A stretch of DNA of 63,959 bases, filler included, from Collodictyon triciliatum (Eukaryota), in the NCBI GenBank assembly GCA_043381765.1. It is 4 parts of 4 records of this genome, joined end to end, with 100 filler letters (N's around TTAATTAATTAA, not from the genome) between each part and the next. Parts side by side here need not be neighbours in the genome. Positions count along the whole stretch, not along the records: positions 1 to 22,512 come from JBHJMP010001146.1; 3 more parts are not named here. One strand, 5' to 3'. Shown one piece after another: positions 2,294 through 62,162 of this stretch. A model generated the notes under the pieces. It searched no databases. It saw only the letters and a list, made by a program, of their open reading frames with translations, and was not told where the DNA came from. A program made the position numbers and the translations under genes. How positions within the stretch are numbered: position 1 is the stretch's first letter; every line of letters starts with the position of its first letter.

Positions 2294-3248
2294 TATCTTT
2301 CGCTTGTGCGTATTCTTTCTTTTCTTGCTTTGCTTTGTTGCGCCTCTGCTCTGCTCTGCCCAGCCTTCTCTTTGATTTGGCGGTGTGCTTGTGTGCTTAT
2401 GCAGAGAGCAAACAAAGGAAAGAGCGTCTCTGGACAGAACCTGAGAGAGCCGCACGTCCGCAGACTCACAATGGCAACGCGTCTTGCGCTCTGCTTTCTG
2501 TCCTTTGCGCAACCGCCGTTTTCGTGCGGGTTTGTCAGGATTCCGATTTATTCGATTTGTTGGGTCTCTTATTCTCTTTTTTTTTCTTTTTTCTTTTGTC
2601 TTGCGTTTCACGGTATGGGGTGTGTGCGTTCCCGTAGAATATGCGATGCAGAGTGGAATGGAAAGGAGGAAGGGAGTGTAAAAAAAGTAATAAAAAGACG
2701 TATCAGGGCAAAAGTGAGCTTTTTTTTTTTTNNNNNNNNNNNNNNNNNNNNNNNNNNNNNNNNNNNNNNNNNNNNNNNNNNNNNNNNNNNNNNNNNNNNN
2801 NNNNNNNNNNNNNNNNNNNNNNNNNNNNNNNNNNNNNNNNNNNNNNNNNNNNNNNNNNNNNNNNNNNNNNNNNNNNNNNNNNNNNNNNNNNNNNNNNNNN
2901 NNNNNNNNNNNNNNNNNNNNNNNNNNNNNNNNNNNNNNNNNNNNNNNNNNNNNNNNNNNNNNNNNNNNNNNNNNNNNNNNNNNNNNNNNNNNNNNNNNNN
3001 NNNNNNNNNNNNNNNNNNNNNNNNNNNNNNNNNNNNNNNNNNNNNNNNNNNNNNNNNNNNNNNNNNNNNNNNNNNNNNNNNNNNNNNNNNNNNNNNNNNN
3101 NNNNNNNNNNNNNNNNNNNNNNNNNNNNNNNNNNNNNNNNNNNNNNNNNNNNNNNNNNNNNNNNNNNNNNNNNNNNNNNNNNNNNNNNNNNNNNNNNNNN
3201 NNNNNNNNNNNNNNNNNNNNNNNNNNNNNNNNNNAAAAAAGCAATTAC

Positions 3249-5149
3249 TTCTGCGCGAAGAAGGAAAATCCTCCATTGAATAGAGATTCAGTACTTCCAG
3301 AATTTTTTCTGTTGAAATAATAAATTGATATAATAAACTATATTTTCTTTCTAAAAGAAAAAAGAAGACGTAAGCATGTACGTTGGCACAGTGTAATAGA
3401 GTACCGATCATCAGTGTCCACATAAATTTGGGTGATTAATTGTTCAAAGCCGCTGGCTGTGTTGGATGACTCTACCATGTCGCTCATCACAAGGCGAAAG
3501 ACGATGTGTTTATGGTCCACCAAAAGCTATATAAGGTTTGTTTATCTCAGTTTCTGCATAATTTATCAAGATAAACACAAACGAGTAGTCACAACAAATA
3601 GATACCTCAACAGAGATTATATCGAATAGAGATGGGTTGAAACCAGGACCAAGGTCAACATCTCGATAATCACTGCAAAATAATATAATCCTCATTAGTG
3701 TGGAGATATGTTCCTTTTGAAGTGGATTAAGTTCATTTTGTGCAATTTTTGTAGTTTATTGACGAAAAAACCAAAATGTCGAACCGAGGTGGGTCTTGTA
3801 GTGAAAATATGCTGCTTGCTGGGTATATTTCGTAACCGACTGGATGCACGTAGGTGATTGCTCCGCTTATGTAAGCATCGAACGTTTTCCTTTTATTGTA
3901 ACCCTGATATGCTAAGAAATCTGTCGCCTAAGGGTGATGGAATAAGTATCATAATTCAACTATAATGGATTCGGTAAGGTATGCTCTTAAAGCTGAATGA
4001 ATGATTTACACCTGTGTTTCCAATCGCCTGTCTGCACCTCCGCCAAGGTTATATTGGGTTTCCTTAGCCCTAACATCTCGAAATTCTCCAAAACTCTCAG
4101 ATCCACACCAGACAGTATAGGCCCATTTTTTAGAAGGAATACCTATCTTTTTATTAATGAGAAATGTCACTTCAGAGAAATTAGCTTGTTTAAATAAATC
4201 TGAGGAGATATATATATATGATGTTCTATAATATTTTAAGAGACGAAAAATAGCGGTTATTTCACGGGAATATCTTTTTCTTTTTATTTTATTTTGTTTT
4301 GTTTTGTTTTGTTTTGTTTTGTTTTATTTTATTTTATTTTATTTTATTTTATTTTATTTTATTTTATTTTATNNNNNNNNNNTTATTTTATTTTATTTTA
4401 TTTTATTTTATTTTATTTTATTTTATTTTATTTCCTTTTTCGTTTTCGTTTTCTTTTTATTTTATTTTATTTCTTTTCCTTTATTTCTTGAATATAACAA
4501 CAATACCAGATGAAGTGGTACAGGAACACTAATGAGGTAGCCTATAGCCTGTTATTATTCCTTAATAAAAAAAAATACTGACCTTATAGCCCGGGTGATA
4601 TTTTGGTAATATTTTTTGGCTTATATATTAATTAAAACTCACACTAGGAGTAAGGGGAGTTCCTTTCTGTTCTACGCGTGAAGAATTTTGGACGAAACTT
4701 ATATGAGCAATCCAACCAGTGAAATATATTGTAAATTCGTAGGGTGCTTCGTCTGTCAAGAAAGTATTCGCACGGTAAGAATAATCCTTAGGGTCTACAG
4801 ACCCGCTTCCAAATCTTCGGTCAGTATCAACAAATATTTGGCATATTTGATGAGAAAATCCTATGTTTTAAGAAAAAAATGTTGTCAGTCGATTAGTTAA
4901 TCAAATTACATATCATGTATATAAAAAAAAAGAAGCAAATTTAAATTATTATATAGTCAGACCGAAGGGAGCAGAGTATGTATTGGTCGAATTCCGGAAT
5001 AAGACTTCGAAGTAAGCTGACGTGCTGTCGTGACTAACATTAAACTGCAATATGTCAAAAAGACCAGGAATGAAAACTGGCTCGGTGGGGTATATCCAAC
5101 CCTCGTCTTTAGCAGGGTCTACATGGCTGTAGATAGGTTGCCTATCAAC
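3249..5149 (-). CDS. Partial gene with two tandem glucodextranase/amylopullulanase C-terminal DOMON-like domains; at least 8 exons, both ends run into N gaps
   Basis: Exons: 5149-4963 VDRQPIYSHVDPAKDEGWIYPTEPVFIPGLFDILQFNVSHDSTSAYFEVLFRNSTNTYSAPF; 4860-~4645 GFSHQICQIFVDTDRRFGSGS...PYEFTIYFTGW; ~4142-4012 GIPSKKWAYTVWCGSESFGEFRDVRAKETQYNLGGG; ~3928-3785 ATDFLAY...IFSLQDPPR; ~3672-3606 DYRDVDLGPGFNPSLFDIISVE; 3526-3405 ...SGFEQLITQIYVDTDDR; 3308-3249 KNSGSTESLF. The splice phases I checked are compatible with GT-AG; the small exons at ~4500-4640 are approximate. Confidence 0.75.
4290..4431. repeat. (TTTTG)n/(TTTTA)n intronic microsatellite containing a short N run
   Basis: Directly visible. 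Confidence 0.95.
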
Positions 5150-6886
5150 CTAAATAGGCAAAATGTTTAATTGACATTTTTGGTTTCTACTTTCAGTTGA
5201 CTTGAATGGTTCTTTTTAATCAATTTGTCAAGTTATTTATGATNNNNNNNNNNNNNNNNNNNNNNNNNNNNNNNNNNNNNNNNNNNNNNNNNNNNNNNNN
5301 NNNNNNNNNNNNNNNNNNNNNNNNNNNNNNNNNNNNNNNNNNNNNNNNNNNNNNNNNNNNNNNNNNNNNNNNNNNNNNNNNNNNNNNNNNNNNNNNNNNN
5401 NNNNNNNNNNNNNNNNNNNNNNNNNNNNNNNNNNNNNNNNNNNNNNNNNNNNNNNNNNNNNNNNNNNNNNNNNNNNNNNNNNNNNNNNNNNNNNNNNNNN
5501 NNNNNNNNNNNNNNNNNNNNNNNNNNNNNNNNNNNNNNNNNNNNNNNNNNNNNNNNNNNNNNNNNNNNNNNNNNNNNNNNNNNNNNNNNNNNNNNNNNNN
5601 NNNNNNNNNNNNNNNNNNNNNNNNNNNNNNNNNNNNNNNNNNNNNNNNNNNNNNNNNNNNNNNNNNNNNNNNNNNNNNNNNNNNNNNNNNNNNNNNNNNN
5701 NNNNNNNNNNNNNNNNNNNNNNNNNNNNNNGAAAATACGTTACCTACCGCACAGCACAATTAGGGGATGGAATAATCACTTGTTATTTCATTCCATTTAT
5801 TTATACATTGCACACAAATATTAGCAACTCAAACAGCCTCACATTTTCCCATCGAACAAATATATATTGAGCTGATCAGTTATTGCTATAAACAATTTGA
5901 TTGACTTGATAAGATTGATTATGAACTAATTGATGCTCGAATCAAAATATTTGCTTGATCGTGAAGCATTTTATTGCAAGATGGATTTAAACTTGCCGCT
6001 AGCACTCGACTCAGCTACACAGCAAAAGGACAGAAAATTAAACGAAATATTAAAGTCTGGAGATCGCCTTGCCAAAACAACCACATACAACAGGCATCAT
6101 GTGATTTTGAGGGCGAGTGATTATTTTTTTTATTATTATTCCTTCTTTTATATATATAGATTTTTTGGGGTGTTTAGTTACAGTAGACCTACAACAGTAC
6201 GCAACCAAGAGCCGAGAAGCTTGCCAGCATCTGCGCATTCTTGGACAATTCAAAATAGTCTACAAGTGCAGTTCTTTGGCAAGGTTGTGGTGACGGGAAT
6301 TTCAACATTGTTTGCTTTCGAACGGGCGTCGTGTACGCCCTGCTTAGCCATATATGGAAAAGACTTTATCTCACATAGTGTAGGAAATCACATAAGTATG
6401 TATTTATGCATTAATTATTGTATTTGTGGATATTATAAGTGTAATTTAATTTTTTCATATAAATTCCGTATTAGATTAACGGAATCTATATATGAAACGA
6501 TTCACTGAATTTCGACCAAGGCAGAAGTTCTGCTTGGGTGAGCTTTCCAATCAAGCAAGTCAATTGGTTTTTGCGCTTGCGCACATCGAGCCATTAAGCG
6601 GAGGAAGCCATCGAACAATAATATGCTGGTAGGGATATGGCTCGCTGACGCGCGTAGTTTGCTTTTAATATTTTTTTATAGAAGTCGGAATGAGAATACT
6701 GATAAGAAATTAAACGTGCAAACACTTGGAAGTCTGGTGAGAGAGGATGCCAATAAGAATGGCCGCACACCGATCAACTGCCCCAGTCTCTTTTGTTCCC
6801 GGCCCCAACCCGAGATGAAACAAAATGCAGTTTTTTTTTTTTTTTGTTTCTTGCAGCACAAGTTAACAAATTCAGGAACCAAGAAG

Positions 6887-11885: not shown

Positions 11886-12977
11886 NNNNNNNNNNNNNNN
11901 NNNNNNNNNNNNNNNNNNNNNNNNNNNNNNNNNNNNNNNNNNNNNNNNNNNNNNNNNNNNNNNNNNNNNNNNNNNNNNNNNNNNNNNNNNNNNNNNNNNN
12001 NNNNNNNNNNNNNNNNNNNNNNNNNNNNNNNNNNNNNNNNNNNNNNNNNNNNNNNNNNNNNNNNNNNNNNNNNNNNNNNNNNNNNNNNNNNNNNNNNNNN
12101 NNNNNNNNNNNNNNNNNNNNNNNNNNNNNNNNNNNNNNNNNNNNNNNNNNNNNNNNNNNNNNNNNNNNNNNNNNNNNNNNNNNNNNNNNNNNNNNNNNNN
12201 NNNNNNNNNNNNNNNNNNNNNNNNNNNNNNNNNNNNNNNNNNNNNNNNNNNNNNNNNNNNNNNNNNNNNNNNNNNNNNNNNNNNNNNNNNNNNNNNNNNN
12301 NNNNNNNNNNNNNNNNNNNNNNNNNNNNNNNNNNNNNNNNNNNNCTCATCAGACCGAAGACATTCCCCTTTCGCATATTCGGCTCTGCAGAACGGGAAAG
12401 AATGCATGCTCCACTAAACTGGGAAAGAAAAAGAAAGAACAGATGAATTGTCTATCCATAAAATAAAAATATGAAACCTTTGCTTCTGACAACCATCCGC
12501 CCAGCGAGTGATAAAAAAAAAAAATAGATTTAAGAACAAAGCACAGACCCTCAAAGCACTCTTCTGCCCTTCCATCATAAATTGGAAACTAATATGAAAA
12601 TTCAAAAATTCGAAAATTCGAAACACACTTATAACTTCAGAATCATGGTTGCACAAGAAACAACCTCGATTCAAATCGGCGCTATTTGGAGGCAGTCTTG
12701 GATATGATGCGACCAACGTTCAGAATCATAACAAAGAAACGCCGATAAACTCAATCCACAGCAAGAACAACTCAGCTCCAAGATCATCCACTTCCCACGA
12801 CCTCCTTCTCATTCACTGCCCTCTCTCCTTCCCCAGCAAACCTCCATCGTTGGCAATCACCCACCTGCTTCACCCCACAAAAACAACCCCATCCACAACA
12901 AATAAAAAAAAATTTTTAAAAAAAAAACAAAAACAAGCCAAACCTCAATAACTCACTCCCACATCTCCCTAAGAATC

Positions 12978-15900
12978 ATGCGTTCTGCATACCCAACATA
13001 TTCGGCAACGCAGCTTCCCTCCGGCCCGGGACAAACAGGGCTGAGCAGCCACACGCCACAAGGTCCAATCGCCACAGCCTTCCGCACGCGCCAGAACGCA
13101 CCTGTCACAGGCTCCGCAAACTCAACCGACTCTGTCCCGGCCATTCTCAGCAGTGGCCACTCATTCTTCTCCACGCCACTGAAGCCCCAAACAGCCGTCC
13201 GCTCCGTCTCGCCAAACACCAATGCAGCAGATCCCCTCGCAAAGTACCATACTTCTGCCCAGCCCGCCTCTGTCTCCGCCTCCACAGCAGGCTTCACGGG
13301 ACTCGCAGCCAACACATACCATCCCTACGGCCCTCGCGACGATTCCAAATACGCATCGGTCAGTGCCATCAGCTGCCTCTTCAACGGGGCGCCTCTTATC
13401 CCCGTGGCGAATGACCCGCCACCTGTCACGTTTCTGCGCTCTCCCCAGGATACCCGCCTAAGCGGCTCGACACCTGTCAAATCCTCCACGCCCGGCAGAG
13501 CTGCTGCTGACCACAGCCCGGTCCACAAGAGACATTCTCCGCGGCAGAAGGAAACAGCCAGAGACACGCTCGATGACCCGCGCGGCCGTTCGCTCTTTGA
13601 GTACTTCAGCCCGTCACGCCCTTTCGATTGGGTGCGCGCGATGGACTCGACCGGGTTCGAACCGCCAGAATCCGCACCGCCAGGTCGATACAGTTTCGAC
13701 TACACTGCGAGGAACGGACACTCCGTCCAACGATCCCTTGGAGCAGACTACTCGGCCGCCTACAACGCCGCAGAGGACGCGTACAGCGAATCGCCCTCTT
13801 CGTCTTGTTCGGCCGCCCACTCACCCGATTTCCCGCCGCAGTTGAACCCCGACGCACAGAACGACTCTGTTTTATTTGCAGCCCAGTTGCGTCAGTTTGA
13901 TCCTTACCAACCGCACAGCGTGGGTCTTTGTTTCGCACACGGCCGATCTTTGCCGACTCACGAACCAGAGAACCCCTGCAAGTATGATCACTTGCCAACA
14001 AGCAGGCCGCGTGCAAATGAAGATGTGCTTCGCGCGTGGGACTTTGATCACACAACGCCTCATCAAAGAATGTCTGCAAATATATGTTCAAAGGATGGCC
14101 AGACAAAGTACGGTGCGACGAAGCAGACGGAGCCTGCTGATGGATTTTACACCCACGGACAAGGGAAGCACGCAGCAGCAACACTTATATCGTCATCATC
14201 CACAGCAAGGAATCAATCATACCAGCCGATTCGTGATACTGGATTTGCCTTGCCGCGCTCGGCCTATGCGCAGACGCAGCAGCAAATGCGACAGACTCAG
14301 CTTCATGCGCAGCCGATGGTTGATGCGTATGGGCACAATGCATCGTATCAGCCACAATCTCGAGTTAATGGGAGTGTGTATCATGAAAAGACAGCCAGTC
14401 TGTATCAGAACGCTCAAGTCCAATCGTCCTCAGCATCGTCGGGTTCGTCATTTTACCAAACACAAGTACAACAAAGGCTGAATTCGGTCCCACTTCAGCA
14501 TCGCTACGGACCTGTTACAAGTCATGCCTATACACAACCAGCAGGGCCATATGCTAGTACTGCCCATTCCCAACGGTCCTTTGTATCAATGCACGATAAC
14601 TCTTCTCATTCGATACTACCAGTTTCGCATGATAGTGGATATCAGAGTACTTATTCAGATGTCCATCCGCTTCACTATAACACAAATGAGCATTATTCGG
14701 GTCATCGCCCGCCAAATTACACTTCACAACAATCGCACCCACAGCAGGACAACTTTGACTCGTTGCTTGGGCAGTATCATGCCAATATGGCTCCAATAGT
14801 CCCACTCTCCCGTCCTCCGCCTTATCAATTGGAGCAGAAGAAGCTCTCAGAAGACGTTCCAAGGAAAAAGACCGAAGCTAATGAGAGCCCATCCAAGAAG
14901 CAGTTGTTGAAAGACTTTACCAAAATCCTGAAATCAAAGGTGTGGATTTGAAATACTTGGGTTTATTTGTGTATTGTCTCGTGGTTTTTTTTTTTTCGTG
15001 AGTTTGTATTATGATTGAAAGTGAACTGTGACTATAAAACGATACTGAAGATTTGCTTCTTTTTTTTCTTTTTTTACTTGCAAAGTTGTTGTTGACTATT
15101 CGACTTTCTTTCAGGAAAACTTCGAAGCTGCATCATCCTATGTGGATGGTGTCATTCAAGATGTTCCTGCTCATCTGCGCTGGAAATTATGTATGCTTAT
15201 TTTTTTGTACTTTTGAAATGATTGCTGCAGTTTATTATGTTGTCAAAGGAATAAAGAAAAAAACGATAACAAAGGATTATGAAAAAATCGCATGCATTGA
15301 TAATTCTACTTTTGTAGATATCGAGCTCGCTGACATGGCGAAGAGAGATAATAATCTTCGAGAGGCACGTCGATTATATACCGATATAGTTACCATTCAG
15401 CCTGATGCTGTCCAAGGATGGTTGGAGTTTGCAAAGCTTGAGGAGGAAAACGGGAGAATGTCCCGATGTGAAGTAAGTACTTAATTAAAGGAATCATGGA
15501 AACATGGCCTACTATGCTATGTTCTTTTCTAAATTCATTACCTGTTATATGTCTTCTGGATGCGCTTAAAAAATATTGTATCATTCCTTGGCATGTGCTT
15601 ATTTTTCCGGGAAAAAAAAGGACATTGTATAATTATACGCCTTGTTTTCATATCACGAGTTAATTTCGTGTTTAATTTGATGCAATAGGCCATCCTGAAG
15701 CAAGGACAAGAGAAATCCGAGTTTAATGAGAATCTTATCATCAAACTGATCAAACACGAAGAGCGAATCGGGAAACTTGATGAAGTATGCATTTCTTATT
15801 CAATATTTGTTGTATGGAACAAAAGTTTTTAAATGTCGATGTCAAACTGAGGTAAATCATTTTAATTCAGGCCCGAAAGATTTTTGCCAGTGTGCGTTCA

Positions 15901-22512: not shown

Positions 22513-22612
22513 NNNNNNNNNNNNNNNNNNNNNNNNNNNNNNNNNNNNNNNNNNNNTTAATTAATTAANNNNNNNNNNNNNNNNNNNNNNNNNNNNNNNN
22601 NNNNNNNNNNNN
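22513..22612. other. Artificial scaffold linker N44-TTAATTAATTAA-N44
   Basis: The 12-mer at 22557-22568 gives stops in all six frames; the same construct occurs three times in the window. Confidence 0.95.
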
Positions 22613-22772: not shown

Positions 22773-24327
22773 ATGGAAAATCAAACAATTAATCCTCTCG
22801 ATGTAGATATACCCACCGGAACTAAATACCTATTCCATGATGAGTTCAATGTCTACGAACCTGATGGCTACTCAAATGCAATCAAATATCCGTACGTATC
22901 TAAAGAAATAATGAAGCCAAATGGAGATATTACCTTAAGGATATCAAGCCAATCTGAGTCACCAATTTCCTACTGTTGCGAAACTGTCCTAACTCCCGAG
23001 GCAAACCAGTATGTTATCGAATTCCATGTTCTTTTTCCAGGTCTGTTAGTTGGCCTTATTCCTGAAGACTATGAAGAAGGTGTCTTACCTGGATTCGGTG
23101 AAAACTCTGTTGCTTACGACGCAGAAAATGGTTTTATTATTTTTAACAGTAATATTGTTGAACATAATGCAGAAAAATGGGACACCTTTGGCTCTATGGT
23201 ACGGTGCATCACAAACTTCCAAAAGGAGGAAGTCACGTTTAGCATTAACCAGCACACATACCATATCAGCATTCCGAATATGGGGAGTGTTAGATTCTTG
23301 CCGGTAGTATATTTCATGGGATACGGCTCTGCCGCAGAGATTAAGATTCGCCAGCGCCAAGGACATGTCACATTTCATCGGCAGCAGACCAACTTCTCCA
23401 ACATTCCTATGCAGGACACATTCGACGAAATAGAGCATCCAGATGTCAAAATGCATCCAGACAAGCTTTCTGTGTGTGTCTTGAAAGAGATAAATTCCCC
23501 TTGCTCCGTTCGTAGCAATAAGGCCTGCGTTGATGATGGCCAAGGTATCCATTTCTTCGAGTTTGAGGTCGTCAATTTCGGCCGTGCGAAGAGTATAGTG
23601 GTCGGAGTTGGGCCGAAGCATCAACCATCTGGGGATGTGTACGGGTATTCGGATTACTCCATCGGGGTGGAGTTTGATGTCGGTAGAAGCAGAGCATATA
23701 TCTCGGGCTGTTTGGCAGAGTTTGCTTACTTTCATTCATTTTTTTTAAAAAAAGAAATAAATATTTCATAGTAATATATTTTATTTTATTAGATTGCACA
23801 ACCACGCTCTTCCATATACATACATGCACCACATGGCTCGATAAGTATGCCCACCCCCACTAATATTCCGAAATTATAGAGAAATTATATCGCGTGAGAC
23901 AGTCTTCCCTCATATTAAGAGCTCCTCTCCAACTTTGATTGGGGTCATAATTGACTTCAAAAATCGGCTTGTTGTTTTTTCTGTGGACGAATACACTTCT
24001 TCAAAACTTGTGGTACAGCTTCCGGCCGAACGTCTACCAGGATTTCGTCCTGGAATCACCCTCAAATATGAATCGCAGCTGGTTATCTTCAATCCTTCCC
24101 CAGTCCCGAGCAGCGGATTGAAGCTTAAATTACACCATATAAACGACACTATTTTTGACGATATAATAACCTACTTCGACGAAAAGCAAGAGAGCAGCGA
24201 CATCGCAGGCTCCTCAAACCCCAATGCCCCTATCAACGGGTCCTTGAACACTGGTCCAATGTTTTCAAAATACCTTCTCTTTGAGAAAGCCTTGGGGTAC
24301 TTCTGTTGTGGAAGAGCCAGCTCGTGA
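22773..24327 (+). CDS. Tandem SPRY (RanBPM-like) domain protein; termini uncertain
   Basis: Two SPRY-like units: YVIEFHV..LLVGL...LPGFGENSVAYDAENG...VTFSIN...FLPVV, and SVRSN..IHFFEFEVVNFG...IVVGV...GYSDYSIG...IGVIIDFKNRLVVFSVD...FRPGITL. Confidence 0.7.
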
Positions 24328-24353
24328 GTGCACTCCTCTCAAGAACGAATAAA

Positions 24354-24606
24354 ATCATCCCATCGTCCCATCATCCCATCGTCCCATCATCCCATCGTCC
24401 CATCATCCCATCGTCCCATCATCCCATCGTCCCATCATCCCATCATCCCATCATCCCATCATCCCATCATCCCATCATCCCATCATCCTATCATCCCATC
24501 ACCCCATCATCCCATCATCCTATCATCCCATCACCCCATCATCCCATCGTCCCATCATCCCATCATCCCATCATCCCATCACCCCATCATCTTATCATCC
24601 CATCAT
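24354..24606. repeat. Degenerate (CATCC/CATCATCC/CATCGTCC)n tandem repeat
   Basis: Directly visible; lies between a GTGAGT donor-like site (24324) and a CTGCAG acceptor-like site (24629), so probably intronic. Confidence 0.9.
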
Positions 24607-24825
24607 GGGAGCGAATATTCCTTCTGCAGATTAAATCATGCGGTAAGTACAACTGTGGAATTTATAACCAACGACATTTAAGAACGATCAAATCAAGCGA
24701 CAGCCAAAGAATCGCGATTCTGGCGTCAACACTCGCACAAACAAGACGTCAAAAGTTGAAATCGAAGCAGATCGGAACATCAAATGCGCAAAGAAGTACG
24801 ATCTCGAGTTCTTGATCTGGGGGAG

Positions 24826-32780: not shown

Positions 32781-34648
32781 TTATAATGGTCGGCAGTAAG
32801 GGCCAGGAACTTCCCCAAGTAAGGTGGTCTGTCCTTGAGGCCCCTCGCAGTTGCGGCGGTGGGTCTGTAACAAACACCTTTCAGACTTCACTATGCTATT
32901 ATTTCCAGTTCTGCTCTTGCAAACAATCGTAGTATATTTGCACAATGCGTACCTGAGGACCAATCTTTGGTTGCTTTCCATCCTTAAGCTGCTTCAACAC
33001 ATTCACTGCGCTTTCTCCGGTCAAATCTTCCTGCATTTGCAGAGACAGGTTGATATTTCAAACTTAATGTAGCGAACTTATGAAATAGTCATGTGATAAA
33101 TGGATATCGCAGATAGAGTAATACACATACGAAAAAGTCGTCGTTAATTTGCATCATTGGTGCATTCACGCAAGCTCCGAGGCACTCAACTTCGGATAGA
33201 GTGAAAAGGCCGTCTTTGGTTGTCTCTAGACGAAAAAAAGAGTGAGTGCAGGCACGCATGGTGGTGCTGTTTCTGGTAGATGAGAATAAAGGGAGCAGAG
33301 GGTATTCATACAAGGGCAGCCCTGTGGAAATAGAAAATGACCGTGGGTAAGAAAAAAAAAACCTCCATAGTGAACTCCAAAAGCCTTTTGAATGGCAGTT
33401 TCGATCTCTTTGCTTCCTCGCAACATGCAGGGAGTGGTTGTGCACAGTTGAACGTGATATTTCCCAATAGGCGCACTATGGCGCAAGAGTGATGAAATAT
33501 TTACACATGTGAATGATAAAAGCAGCGAACAGACAGTAATATGCGACATAATCCAAATGAAATGTGGGTTTTGTAAAAGTCAGTTAAAATGATAAGGCCG
33601 TATTCCTATTCTGGCTTGACTTTATAAATACATATCACTATTTTTTGAATATGTAATACAGTGCATCCAAATCATCACCCGTATAATATATAAGAAAATT
33701 ATCAAGTTAATCATAGTTATCTACAAACCGGTTGAACATGGTATAGAAGGTTGCGACCTCATAGACTTTGATGGGCGGGATTTCAAGGATAGTAGCAATA
33801 TGATTCATGGCAGCAAGAGAAACCCAGCCATTATTTTGGCGCTGGGCCAAGTGCAGCAGTGGAATGGTTGCACTGCGTTTATAATGGTCTGGGTATTTGC
33901 TGAGAATATGCTTGACCTTCTCATAGTTTTCTTCGTTAAACTCAAACGGCGTATCCTCGTTGTTGTATTCTGTGTTGCGGTGCTATATTCACAAATACGT
34001 CATAAGGTGGATAATTATTTTTATTTGGTTTCGGTGATAAACTACTATCGATTGATTTTGCTTCTCGATCTTTTAGTTATGACAGAAGGCACACGTTTTT
34101 TATTCTATTTTTTTTACTTGGATAGAGCAAACCAGGGTTATGTATTTGTAATACTAAAGAAATATACGGAGCACATACGTTGTTCAAAGCAGCAGAACCG
34201 CCGAGACGAACGTTGGAAGAGGCGATTCCGCGGGTCTAGTTGAGCATGTTTTTTTATTTATTTATTTATTTATTTTTTGTCAGTGAAAAAAAACAACCTT
34301 TTGGTCGCAGCTCAAAGTAAACTAAGAAAAAGAGAAAACGAAATGTTGGTTGTCAAGGATGTGGCGAATCCGAAAGTCAAGAAAGGTCGCAAGAAAAGGA
34401 GAGATATGGTGGGACGCAGAAGAGGAGTTCTTTTGTTACAAAACTGGGCGACACAAAGATCAACGGGTTGAGAATATTCTGGAGACAGAAACTGCTTGTG
34501 TAGAAAGGAGCCCTTTTTTTTTTTTTTTTTCTCTTTTCTTTTTTTTTTTTTTTTTTTTTTCGAGGTGACTTTCCCATGTTGATCGACTCACCAGAACGCC
34601 CGTCGCCTTGGTTGAAGACAGAATTGAGGAAGCGAAGCGGCTCAACAT
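32781..34648 (-). CDS. NDUFV2: NADH dehydrogenase 24-kDa subunit (NuoE), mitochondrial precursor, 7 exons
   Basis: Spliced [53 protein letters not shown]...[14 protein letters not shown]...[33 protein letters not shown]...|[23 protein letters not shown]. The four 2Fe-2S cysteines are present and the N-terminus resembles a presequence. Confidence 0.95.
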
Positions 34649-42093: not shown

Positions 42094-44915
42094 ATGCTTC
42101 TTAATCCAATCCGAAGACATATGGACTACAAACTGGTGCGATTGCAATCTTCGCAAAGCCTTCCTCCGCTTCGATGCTCCATGAGTCTGATTAAATTAAA
42201 TTCTCATAAAGATTTACACACATTTACTTTAGAATGAATTTTTTCATTAAATTGGTCATTGTAGCTTGTTTTCACGCACCAAGTTTTTTTATATAATCTT
42301 TCATCAAGGAAAAATAAAAACGAAATTATGAAATATCTCTCTCTAATAGAAAATAACCCTATGGTTCCCCCCGAGCACGCAGTGGAAATTATAAAGAGCA
42401 AGGACAAAGTGTTCATCCATACAGCTGCCGCCTCTCCTCAAGTCCTCCTTCGTGAAATGGCCAAGCGTGCACCGGAGTTAAAAGATGTTGATGTATAGGA
42501 AATCGCAGCTCTAAAAACAAATAACAGAGTTTTAATAACTCCTAAAGAAGCACAATGACCTCTTTAAATGATACTTAGTTATAAATTAGTGTGAATGAAA
42601 TGCTTCTACATGGGTTGATCGATATCTTGTGTAGATTTTCCACTTGCACGTATACGGAGACGCCCCGCACACACAAGAGAAATTTTCATCCAGTTTCCGA
42701 GACAATAGCTTCTTTCTTTCGGAAAAATTTCGTCAGGTTGCGTGCACTGTCGCCTCATGATATTTTGTCTAGCCTTGAAGTGTTGATGGGGATTAATCAG
42801 TTACGGGAAGTGGCTGTTGTCATAGTTTCATCTCGCTTCATCGCTAAATCTTTTTTTATTCTTCCTTCCAATTTCGTGCAGGATAGTTTGATTCTAAATG
42901 AGTTTAATCGAAATCATTTCAGGCCGTCAATTCTGGGCCAGCAGACTTCATCCCCATTTTCATGAGCGGAGTGCCGACCTTATTTCAAAGCAAGCATATT
43001 GAGCTAGATGTTGCTCTTCTTTCGGGTGGAAATAAATTCGTTTTTATGCAGATTCAAAAAGATACCACTTCTTTTATATTTAATAAGTCAATTAAAATTA
43101 TGCCCATTTCCTCCAGAATAATGAGTGAATGCGTTTTTTCAGAGGAGCTTATTGATAATAGTGCAAGCGGTCGATCAATTAAATATGGCAACAATCGTTT
43201 TTGTCCCTCTTTTATAGTCTCACCTCCAGATAAGCACGGGTACTGCTCTTTGGGCACATCAGTTGACTGCAGTGTAGCAGCAGCCAATTCAGCAAAAAGT
43301 GTCATCGCATTGATCAATAAGCATATGCCTCGCACCTTCGGACAGGGAATCATCCATGTAAGTCCTGAATATATGGCCTGTTAATTTTCAGTTTAGAGCA
43401 TTATTGCCCATCTGATGGACTGTATATTTATTCAATAATCGTAATACGCAATTTCCTAAAAGTTTCACGATTTGATCGACTTGTTTACCATGATGAACCC
43501 TTTGCCAGAAGTGATAAGGAAACCAGCCGATGAAATCATTGAATGCATTGGACAAGTGAGTCAGTATCTGAATGGATTATATTTCGAATATTTAACTGTT
43601 GATTTTACATGGATAGCATGTTGCTGATTTGGTGGAAGATGGCGCAACCTTGCAAGTTGGTTATGGAAGTGTCCCTGGGGCAGCTTTGAAGTATCTGTAT
43701 GGTCGGAAAGACCTTGGAATCCATACCGAAATGTTCTCTGACGTAATATGCATTTTATTTAAAAATTCGTGCTATCAAAAAATTATAACAGGCCCAACTT
43801 TAAATGTCTTTCTGCAGGAAATCATTGGTCTCGTTAAAAATGGTGTCATCACCAATATGAAGAAGACTATAATGCCGAGGAAAATTGTTGCCTCATTTCT
43901 AAGTAACTCTAATTTTTATGCCATATAAGGCTTAAAAGTATTCATTTGATTTATTCTTTTGAGAAAAGACTGCAAGTATCTCAAATTTGCCTCAATAGCC
44001 GGCGCGAATGATTTGTATGATTTCGTCGATAACAATCCTGTGCTGGGTATGTGTGGATTTGAAAGAATAAATTCCCACTTAATATCTGCAATCTTTTGAT
44101 TTTTAAAATTCAACAAACCCTGATTCTACAGATATGTACGCTGCAAATTGGACAAATGACCCTGCTATCATTCGCCAGAATGACAAAGTCGTAGCCATCA
44201 ACAGCGCAATCGAAGTTGACTTGACGGGTCAAATATGTGCTGATAGTTTTGGTACCTCGATTTACTCTGGGGTTGGGGGCAAGTAGATTTTGAACGCGGG
44301 GCTGCCCTGGGTCGTGGTGGGAGGCCGATAATTGGTAATTATCTATGAATGTTGTTCTCAACCCTTGATATATTTACTCTATGTTTCGTTTGTTTACTGT
44401 ACGGCTCGTGAAGGGAAACAAAGCAGAAACAAAAACTGACACATCAATATCAATAGCTCTTCCATCACGCATCCACAAAGGAATTCCTCGCATCGTACCA
44501 TTTCTGAAACAAGGAGGTAAGGTGAAATGAATCAATGAAAAGGCTGGGAGCTACCACCCCCTACGCCTTTCTTCAATATTTTTTTGGATTATTCACGGCA
44601 TCAAAACAAAGTCAATAATGCGCAATTATCAGAAAACCATGTTTCCAAATCACTCCAAAGCACTTGGGTGAAAAAAAAAAACATCTGTGTTCAAAAGTCA
44701 CTATCGTACGCTCACTAATCGAGACCCCTCGTGTGGTTGTCATAGCTGGGGTGGTGACCAGCCGTGCGCATGTCTACTGGGTCATTACGGAGTACGGAAA
44801 GGCCTGTCTCTTTGGCAAGAACACACACCAACGCACTGAGGCCCTCATCAATATAGCCCATCCAGAGGACCGGGATGCTTTACGAGCTTACGCGAAATCA
44901 AACCTCCATCTATGA
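42094..44915 (+). pseudogene. Acetate:succinate CoA-transferase / 4-hydroxybutyrate CoA-transferase family gene with frameshifts (pseudogene or consensus errors)
   Basis: Motifs VFIHTAAASP, VSPPDKHGYCSLGTSVD, NKHMPRTFG, DGATLQVG.G, DLGIHTEMFSD (catalytic Glu), AINSAIEVDLTGQ.CADS.G and GVVTSRAHV..V.TEYG. SGVGGQVDF is broken by a G5 run (44275-44279), giving TAG at 44284-44286. There is a second frame anomaly at 43462-43503. Confidence 0.7.
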
Positions 44916-45107: not shown

Positions 45108-45207
45108 NNNNNNNNNNNNNNNNNNNNNNNNNNNNNNNNNNNNNNNNNNNNTTAATTAATTAANNNNNNNNNNNNNNNNNNNNNNNNNNNNNNNNNNNNN
45201 NNNNNNN
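45108..45207. other. Artificial scaffold linker N44-TTAATTAATTAA-N44
   Basis: 12-mer at 45152-45163. Confidence 0.95.
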
Positions 45208-62062: not shown

Positions 62063-62162
62063 NNNNNNNNNNNNNNNNNNNNNNNNNNNNNNNNNNNNNN
62101 NNNNNNTTAATTAATTAANNNNNNNNNNNNNNNNNNNNNNNNNNNNNNNNNNNNNNNNNNNN
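62063..62162. other. Artificial scaffold linker N44-TTAATTAATTAA-N44
   Basis: 12-mer at 62107-62118. Confidence 0.95.

Follow-up and report, generated by a model that had tools for sequence, protein, structure and literature searches.

How does a domain that the literature we found describes as accessory to prokaryotic enzymes acting on alpha-glucans come to be encoded in the genome of the protist Collodictyon triciliatum, and what might it do there? The question is raised by positions 3249–5149, minus strand, of a 63,959-nucleotide stretch of this genome (GCA_043381765.1; four parts joined end to end, hereafter the window). An initial annotation had read short minus-strand exons at this locus as a heavily spliced gene for two copies of a DOMON-like domain, of the kind found in Arthrobacter glucodextranase and in Thermococcales amylopullulanases of glycoside hydrolase (GH) family 57, and had proposed an old lateral transfer. 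On the evidence presented here, the locus is probably a genuine nuclear split gene that encodes the N-terminal portion of a Glucodextran_C (PF09985) domain array lying outside the cell, with an orthologue in Diphylleia rotans and a module of prokaryotic origin. The window gene is absent from the protein collections searched and apparently unannotated.

The domain assignment came from six minus-strand open reading frames (ORFs), defined stop-to-stop and scanned singly against Pfam-A. PF09985 was the best match for four of the six, two of them above its curated cut-off of 22 bits: ORF 4949–5149, which holds exon A of the model described below (E = 1.3e-11, 44.8 bits, profile positions 2–64), and ORF 4628–4867, with exon B (E = 9.2e-5, 22.5 bits, profile 63–123). 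Weaker matches were given by ORF 4006–4140, with exon C (E = 0.011, profile 152–191), and by ORF 3338–3526, with exon F of the second copy (E = 0.17, profile 40–78); ORFs 3733–3927 (exon D) and 3510–3680 (exon E) had no Pfam match. The order of the matches along the profile is collinear with the order of the ORFs on the minus strand, and, for the rest of the PF09985 model, coverage comes from aligning the spliced product, free of gaps, to a protein whose PF09985 domains are full length. A profile of nine sequences that includes the window exons matched residues 754–971 of PDB chain 1ug9_A (E = 4.5e-21); PDB entries 1ug9 and 1ulv, named "glucodextranase", are presumably the Arthrobacter globiformis enzyme. 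Single-sequence phmmer searches of PDB with exon A alone or with the closest relative, P0001, gave no match. The DOMON-like identity and the kinship with the Arthrobacter domain were thus both borne out. The window gene belongs to PF09985 at the domain level and is not a glucodextranase, amylopullulanase or debranching enzyme. In the literature, Glucodextran_C is assigned a CBM9-like fold within the DOMON_like superfamily, and a kinetic study of one bacterial member suggests that the domain aids recognition of alpha-glucan chains (PMC10074034). The family profile also matched residues 109–295 of PDB 9x81_A (E = 9.4e-11), a 311-residue chain named "Alpha-amylase", which may be a second solved structure of the module.

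Setting exon ends at frame-keeping GT and AG dinucleotides yielded a spliced model of eight minus-strand exons, running from 5149 to 3249, and seven introns. All seven introns have GT..AG ends and are 79–112 nt long, save one of 360 nt, and the joined reading frame is open over 324 codons without a stop. When exon A (66 residues) was used as a phmmer query against 1.84 billion representative sequences at a threshold of E ≤ 0.001, 20 proteins were retrieved, with P0001 the best by far (E = 9e-24, six matched stretches). The P0001 cluster includes three EukProt records, all of them Trinity transcripts from Diphylleia rotans, EP00002 P006332, P006329 and P006311, which we refer to as P0021, P0001 and P0022, respectively. 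The spliced product aligned with P0001 at 113 of 320 identical positions (35%) with two gap positions (207 bits, E = 3e-64, far beyond chance), model residues 3–321 corresponding to protein residues 28–346. The two proteins have the motifs VDTDRRFGSGS and WAYTVWCGSE in common, together with a four-residue deletion before YPT in the loop DD.GPG.Y.YPT relative to the aligned bacterial sequences. Given that the identity is low, the two organisms need not be close. The exon junctions draw their main support from this alignment because its near gap-free course needs every exon, including B′, D and E. As far as comparison can tell, the locus thus appears to be a real intron-split eukaryotic gene.

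The relationship extends to individual domains. For phylogenetic analysis, domains were cut out with a local hidden Markov model from alignment A1, which was used for that purpose only, and a tree of 34 domains was inferred with IQ-TREE under LG+C20+F+G4. Its rows were window copy 1, the six domains of P0021, and 27 prokaryote-type domains (from P0002, P0004, P0005, P0006, P0008, P0010, P0011, P0012, P0014, P0015, P0017, P0020 and P0028, and from loci L002, L009, L012, L013 and L014). Left out were the partial window copy 2, the fragments P0007, P0009, P0016, P0018 and P0019, the non-members P0003 and P0013, the P0021 isoforms P0001 and P0022, the near-identical cluster members P0023–P0027, and loci L001, L003–L008, L010 and L011, which are close to L002 and P0005. 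Window copy 1 grouped with Diphylleia domain 1 with support of 100/99, apart from Diphylleia domains 2–6. BLASTP agreed, with copy 1 scoring 158 bits against domain 1 and at most 70.5 against domains 2–6, and partial copy 2 reaching 54.7 bits with domain 2 but no more than 42.7 with the others. Window copy 1 is orthologous to Diphylleia domain 1, and, with copy 2 assigned by best match, the window gene appears orthologous domain for domain to the Diphylleia ectodomain. This shared domain-by-domain layout indicates that the tandem array predates the divergence of the two genes.

The outer ends of the exon model, all of it on the minus strand, are identical to the span first annotated, and the motifs quoted at that time are present in the stop-to-stop ORFs. 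Exon A (4963–5149, 187 nt; acceptor ..ttag, donor gtctga) begins copy 1 with the motifs DP.KDE..YPT..PGLFD; its boundaries are those of the exon model, and Diphylleia residues 28–90 align to it. Exon B (4643–4860, 218 nt; entered in phase 1, donor gtgagt) continues copy 1 with GFSHQ..VDTDRRFGSGS..TGW and carries an 11-residue motif identical in the Diphylleia protein. Exon B′ (4507–4548; 42 nt, 14 codons, GT..AG with phase 0 on both sides), not quoted in the initial annotation, supplies the strand ahead of the GIP..W.Y.V segment of copy 1 and is required for the gap-free alignment to Diphylleia. It is followed by intron 3 (4147–4506, 360 nt), which contains a (TTTTA)n microsatellite at 4282–4472 and a 10-N gap at 4373–4382. 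Exon C (4012–4146, 135 nt; copy 1 GIP..WAYTVWCGSE..FR.V..LGGG) is 58% identical to the corresponding segment of Diphylleia domain 1; an alternative acceptor two bases downstream was rejected, as it breaks both frame and alignment. Exon D (3785–3927, 143 nt; donor gttcga), placed by GT..AG ends, frame and alignment to Diphylleia residues about 220–266, carries the end of copy 1, a linker and the first residues of copy 2 (QDPPR). Copy 2 continues in exon E (3606–3672, 67 nt; GPGFNPSLFDI), in exon F (3405–3526, 122 nt), which runs through to SGFEQ..QIYVDTDD and shows 40.5% identity to Diphylleia residues 295–331 (tblastn, E = 1.3e-4), and in exon G (3249–3308, 60 nt; KNSGS, donor gtaatt at 3248), exons E and G being placed by the exon model and the Diphylleia alignment. 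The two proposed copies are indeed in tandem, but the second is only partial, comprising about 95 residues (the first 40%) before it is cut by the gap at 3234. The visible part therefore amounts to one full Glucodextran_C copy and a partial second, or ~1.4 domains. The G+C content is 42.8% in exons versus 23.1% in introns. One sequencing run of unspecified kind contains 63% of the sampled words of 4383–5243, and from three runs no contig could be placed on 3235–4282, a span picked to stay clear of the microsatellite; neither result bears on expression or on the junctions.

The Diphylleia protein suggests what the remainder of such a gene can look like. P0021, the longest isoform at 1,633 residues, has six PF09985 stretches followed by a kinase at 1493–1602 (PK_Tyr_Ser-Thr, E = 1.5e-21; Pkinase, E = 6.6e-15). 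Read from the sequence, a hydrophobic, signal-peptide-like leader lies ahead of domain 1, and some 20 hydrophobic residues followed by RR lie between domain 6 and the kinase. The succession of leader, six domains, helix and kinase makes P0021 look like a type-I receptor-like kinase, and no glycoside hydrolase domain was found by Pfam in any of the three isoforms. Only PF09985 domains are present in P0001 (six) and P0022 (five). Relative to P0021, P0001 has a 21-residue insertion at residue 1320, with V first and Q last, and a divergent tail that again starts with V, as retained GT..AG introns would give; the shorter isoforms thus look like intron-retention products. The PK_Tyr_Ser-Thr domain of P0021 is itself cut off in its N-lobe. 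Common to the window gene and the Diphylleia protein is a tandem Glucodextran_C array, which in Diphylleia starts right after the leader. The Diphylleia protein adds further domains, a helix and a kinase, whereas the window offers its 1.4 domains with neither helix nor kinase found.

Both ends of the window gene are missing, since exon A starts at an acceptor with an in-frame stop before it, and the donor that closes exon G lies 14 bases short of a gap into which the gene continues. The gene sits on a 2-kb contig flanked by runs of N at 2732–3234 and 5244–5730, both at the coordinates originally given. The former (503 N) should contain the remainder of copy 2 and what follows, and the latter (487 N) probably contains the first exon with the start codon and signal peptide. 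A signal-peptide-like first exon was not found at 5150–5243 or 5731–6400; a hydrophobic leader search of 5731–6400 gave one weak candidate, at 6086–6021, which was rejected because it lies inside the neighboring plus-strand ORF region. By tblastn, the Diphylleia proteins had no match at 2400–2731 or elsewhere in the window beyond the gene, and for the C-terminal 253 residues of P0021 no credible match turned up anywhere in the window (best E = 0.25), the gene itself running on into the gap. Pairs of 44-N runs exactly 12 bases apart occur at 22513–22612, 45108–45207 and 62063–62162, a pattern that we took as a scaffolding artefact; together with the gaps of roughly 500 N, these pairs mark gap sizes and contig order as estimates.

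The visible product reads, from its sequence, as a non-catalytic Glucodextran_C array that starts where a leader peptide would end. The most likely reading of the window gene is the beginning of an extracellular, non-catalytic array that binds glycans and may be that of a receptor. The protein would be exported to reside at or outside the cell surface, either secreted or membrane-anchored. By analogy with the prokaryotic enzymes, each putative beta-sandwich module would bind a polysaccharide, with an alpha-glucan or a glycan of the cell wall as the likeliest ligand; the surface or alpha-glucan-binding role suggested by the initial annotation would fit the Diphylleia orthologue. The protein may further be a sensor that signals through a kinase. 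We make only tentatively the proposal that the window gene shares the Diphylleia layout, with ligand binding coupled to a cytoplasmic kinase, and grade it low because nothing downstream is visible. Similarly tentative is the proposal that the window and Diphylleia genes represent an undescribed family of type-I receptor kinases in distantly related protists, with an ectodomain captured from prokaryotes and used as a glycan sensor, for polysaccharides of prey, food or wall.

Where did the module come from? The family was found in all four genomes behind the collected loci, in 16 of 151 genomes of the phylum of a Pyrodictiaceae archaeon (G001), in 36 of 151 genomes of the phylum of a Bacillota metagenome-assembled genome (MAG; G002), and, among 14 control genomes, only in that of Thermus thermophilus. 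Of the phmmer matches that were looked up among the 20, P0001 alone has a eukaryote label, in a library that includes EukProt. Prokaryotic organism names are attached to three clusters, P0003 (Omnitrophota), P0005 (Bacillota) and P0015 (Thermococcus siculi), and the remaining matches are metagenome or unnamed records. Fusions of prokaryotic type (GDE_C, GH57 and Cu_amine_oxidN1) occur in P0012, P0014, P0017 and P0020. P0003 (MBF0522532.1, an Omnitrophota MAG protein of 4,003 residues) was set aside despite an E value of 1.1e-9 with exon A over seven stretches; with PRTase-CE repeats and no PF09985, it must be a false positive or else a repeat that has diverged strongly. P0013, a repeat protein with a mere 13-residue match, is not a family member. 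Word-based searches with exon A and P0001, low in reach, found no further relatives beyond P0001. Degenerate DNA patterns for WAYTVWCGSE and VDTDRRFGSGS had no match each in metagenome contigs, and P0001 had no relative among viral contigs, both searches being of limited reach.

Within the gene itself, none of the five intron positions in the overlap of the two copies (one in copy 1, four in copy 2) is common to both. This fits intron gain after duplication, as for a once intron-less gene; differential intron loss would look the same. Bacterial contamination, against which the introns had been cited from the start, is excluded by those introns together with the eukaryotic neighbor genes. The module may have reached eukaryotes through lateral transfer out of a prokaryote, at a time before the divergence of the two genes, with introns arriving later. 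Lateral transfer into eukaryotes, and an old one, is plausible but unproven: the frequency of the family in prokaryotes and the one eukaryote-labelled relative speak for the transfer proposed by the initial annotation, but the tree built did not resolve a donor.

Several observations weigh against the reading of the locus as the start of a secreted or displayed array of prokaryotic origin. The tree places all seven eukaryotic domains in the same half as four prokaryote-type proteins, namely P0014 (GH57), P0004 (a Peptidase_MA_2 fusion), and P0012 and P0017 (GDE_C; both called "glycogen debranching enzyme" by their source), and the support for this split is weak (77/59). Holding the seven domains monophyletic cost 2.93 log-likelihood units (approximately unbiased test, p = 0.343), so that their monophyly is merely not rejected, and the 34-domain tree names no donor. 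The rarity of the family in eukaryotes is provisional and weakly established, as it comes from a 66-residue query and low-reach word searches, and the Diphylleia label stems from the transcriptome record of a predator culture. Support for the exon junctions is comparative. With both gene ends gone, the window shows neither a signal peptide nor a membrane helix or kinase. The stated 503-N gap and the roughly 330 bases up to the next gene leave too little room for four more domains and a kinase; even the missing 60% of copy 2, introns included, does not fit into the gap. This means either a window protein far shorter than that of Diphylleia or an error in the gap size or in the contig placement. 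As to function, the same study (PMC10074034) states that sugar binding by Glucodextran_C has never been directly demonstrated.

These points have to be set against the alternatives. Vertical inheritance from an early eukaryotic ancestor with wide loss, the likeness to prokaryotes then reflecting common DOMON-like descent, is in our judgment improbable. It would accommodate a eukaryote-labelled orthologue with the same domain order, and hence an old array, as well as the many introns and the host-like composition of GC-richer exons and AT-rich introns; it would also sit well with a tree that has no donor clade and with searches for more eukaryotic members that were low in reach. However, only a single eukaryote label appeared among 20 matches in a library that includes EukProt, the two signature motifs went without a match in metagenome contigs, the family is common in both of the prokaryotic phyla that were sampled, and the intron positions differ between the two copies.

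That the array is instead the C-terminal accessory part of a glycoside hydrolase, with a catalytic GH15, GH57 or GH13 domain in or beyond the gaps, had been suggested initially, and in prokaryotes a GH57 or GDE_C catalytic domain often accompanies the module in one protein (P0012, P0014, P0015 and P0017). We consider this very unlikely. Residue 3 of the window product aligns to Diphylleia residue 28, right after the signal peptide, so that just a leader is expected upstream; the orthologue passes from signal peptide straight to domain 1, its isoforms lack a glycoside hydrolase domain, and none was found in the 101 window ORFs of at least 95 residues. Only slightly less improbable is a dead or misplaced piece, either the remnant of a pseudogene or a small contig that belongs elsewhere in the genome, or to another eukaryote sampled, and was set into this scaffold by mistake. 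Gaps flank the 2-kb contig at either end, its misplacement within the scaffold is possible, and too little space remains for the missing parts of the gene; an annotated protein containing exon A was not found in the collections searched. Yet 324 stop-free codons, canonical ends at all seven introns and the retention of all family motifs are not what a pseudogene fragment would lead one to expect, the microsatellite style and the exon/intron composition match the rest of the window, and misplacement would leave the gene real.

Prokaryotic Glucodextran_C is either joined to alpha-glucan enzymes (GH57 or GDE_C) or displayed alone with a membrane tail, as in the P0005 cluster. The C-terminal domain of Arthrobacter glucodextranase is of the same Pfam family as the window exons, but there it is the single accessory domain of a bacterial GH15-type enzyme, whereas the window domains are tandem and intron-split, and no catalytic domain is seen with them. 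Two tandem Glucodextran_C domains, like the window array and as the initial annotation had stated for Thermococcales, occur in Thermococcus siculi amylopullulanase (WP_088855556.1, P0015); in contrast to the window gene, this enzyme is archaeal, lacks introns and carries an N-terminal GH57 catalytic domain. Its two domains are mutual nearest relatives in the tree, away from the eukaryotic ones. Similar in logic are single-domain Bacillota surface proteins (the P0005 cluster, e.g., HHY31700.1, and L002–L011), which are non-catalytic and consist of a leader, one Glucodextran_C domain and a C-terminal hydrophobic tail. The P0005 cluster shares 48% identity with exon A over 48 residues and the same principle of a displayed binding module; unlike the window gene, it is bacterial, has one domain and is not the nearest tree branch. 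Neither a eukaryotic tandem array nor the Diphylleia kinase fusion is mentioned in the literature searched, whose coverage leaves out subscription journals.

New here is the likely receptor-type architecture of a eukaryotic Glucodextran_C family. If true, a prokaryotic module would clearly have been recruited to eukaryotic cell-surface sensing, and the case would offer a handle on the ligand of the module. The locus also illustrates how gene prediction missed an apparently real gene whose exons are very short. In practice the finding carries limited weight, as the window copy is a fragment and lateral-transfer candidates are common in protists.

The other genes in the window are ordinary split eukaryotic genes. 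Pfam identified a major facilitator superfamily (MFS) transporter, a TPR protein, a PPP-type phosphatase, SPRY, CH, JAB/MPN, C2 and PRKCSH domains, an NDUFV2-like 2Fe-2S protein and an acetyl-CoA hydrolase/transferase. Several of them have successive parts of a Pfam profile on separate ORFs, like the target gene, and T-rich and A-rich microsatellites like that of intron 3 occur throughout. Rfam and tRNA scans of the window returned nothing. The next minus-strand gene encodes the MFS transporter (MFS_1, E = 1.3e-9, ORF 588–1505), with a start-like MSSSP.. segment near 2290. The surrounding positions 1–2400 have a G+C content of 49%, versus 23–45% elsewhere, and the repeat (AAAAGATA)x14.5 stands at the first base of the window. 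At 33092–33982 (minus strand), exons of the NDUFV2-like 2Fe-2S thioredoxin-like protein carry profile parts 60–97 and 98–129 on different ORFs, which suggests that the organism has respiratory complex I. A split acetyl-CoA hydrolase/transferase gene lies at 42908–44912 (plus strand), with E = 1e-9 for its N-terminal and 2.6e-16 for its C-terminal domain. At 24285–24812 (plus strand), an array of (ATCATCCC)x31.6 forms a long open frame of HHPIIPSS-type repeats; its "Cornifin" Pfam match was below cut-off and was dismissed as a composition effect. A further open frame of 681 codons at 12906–14948 (plus strand) is rich in Pro, Ser and Thr, matches no Pfam family and lies in a stretch of strongly negative GC skew (-0.296).

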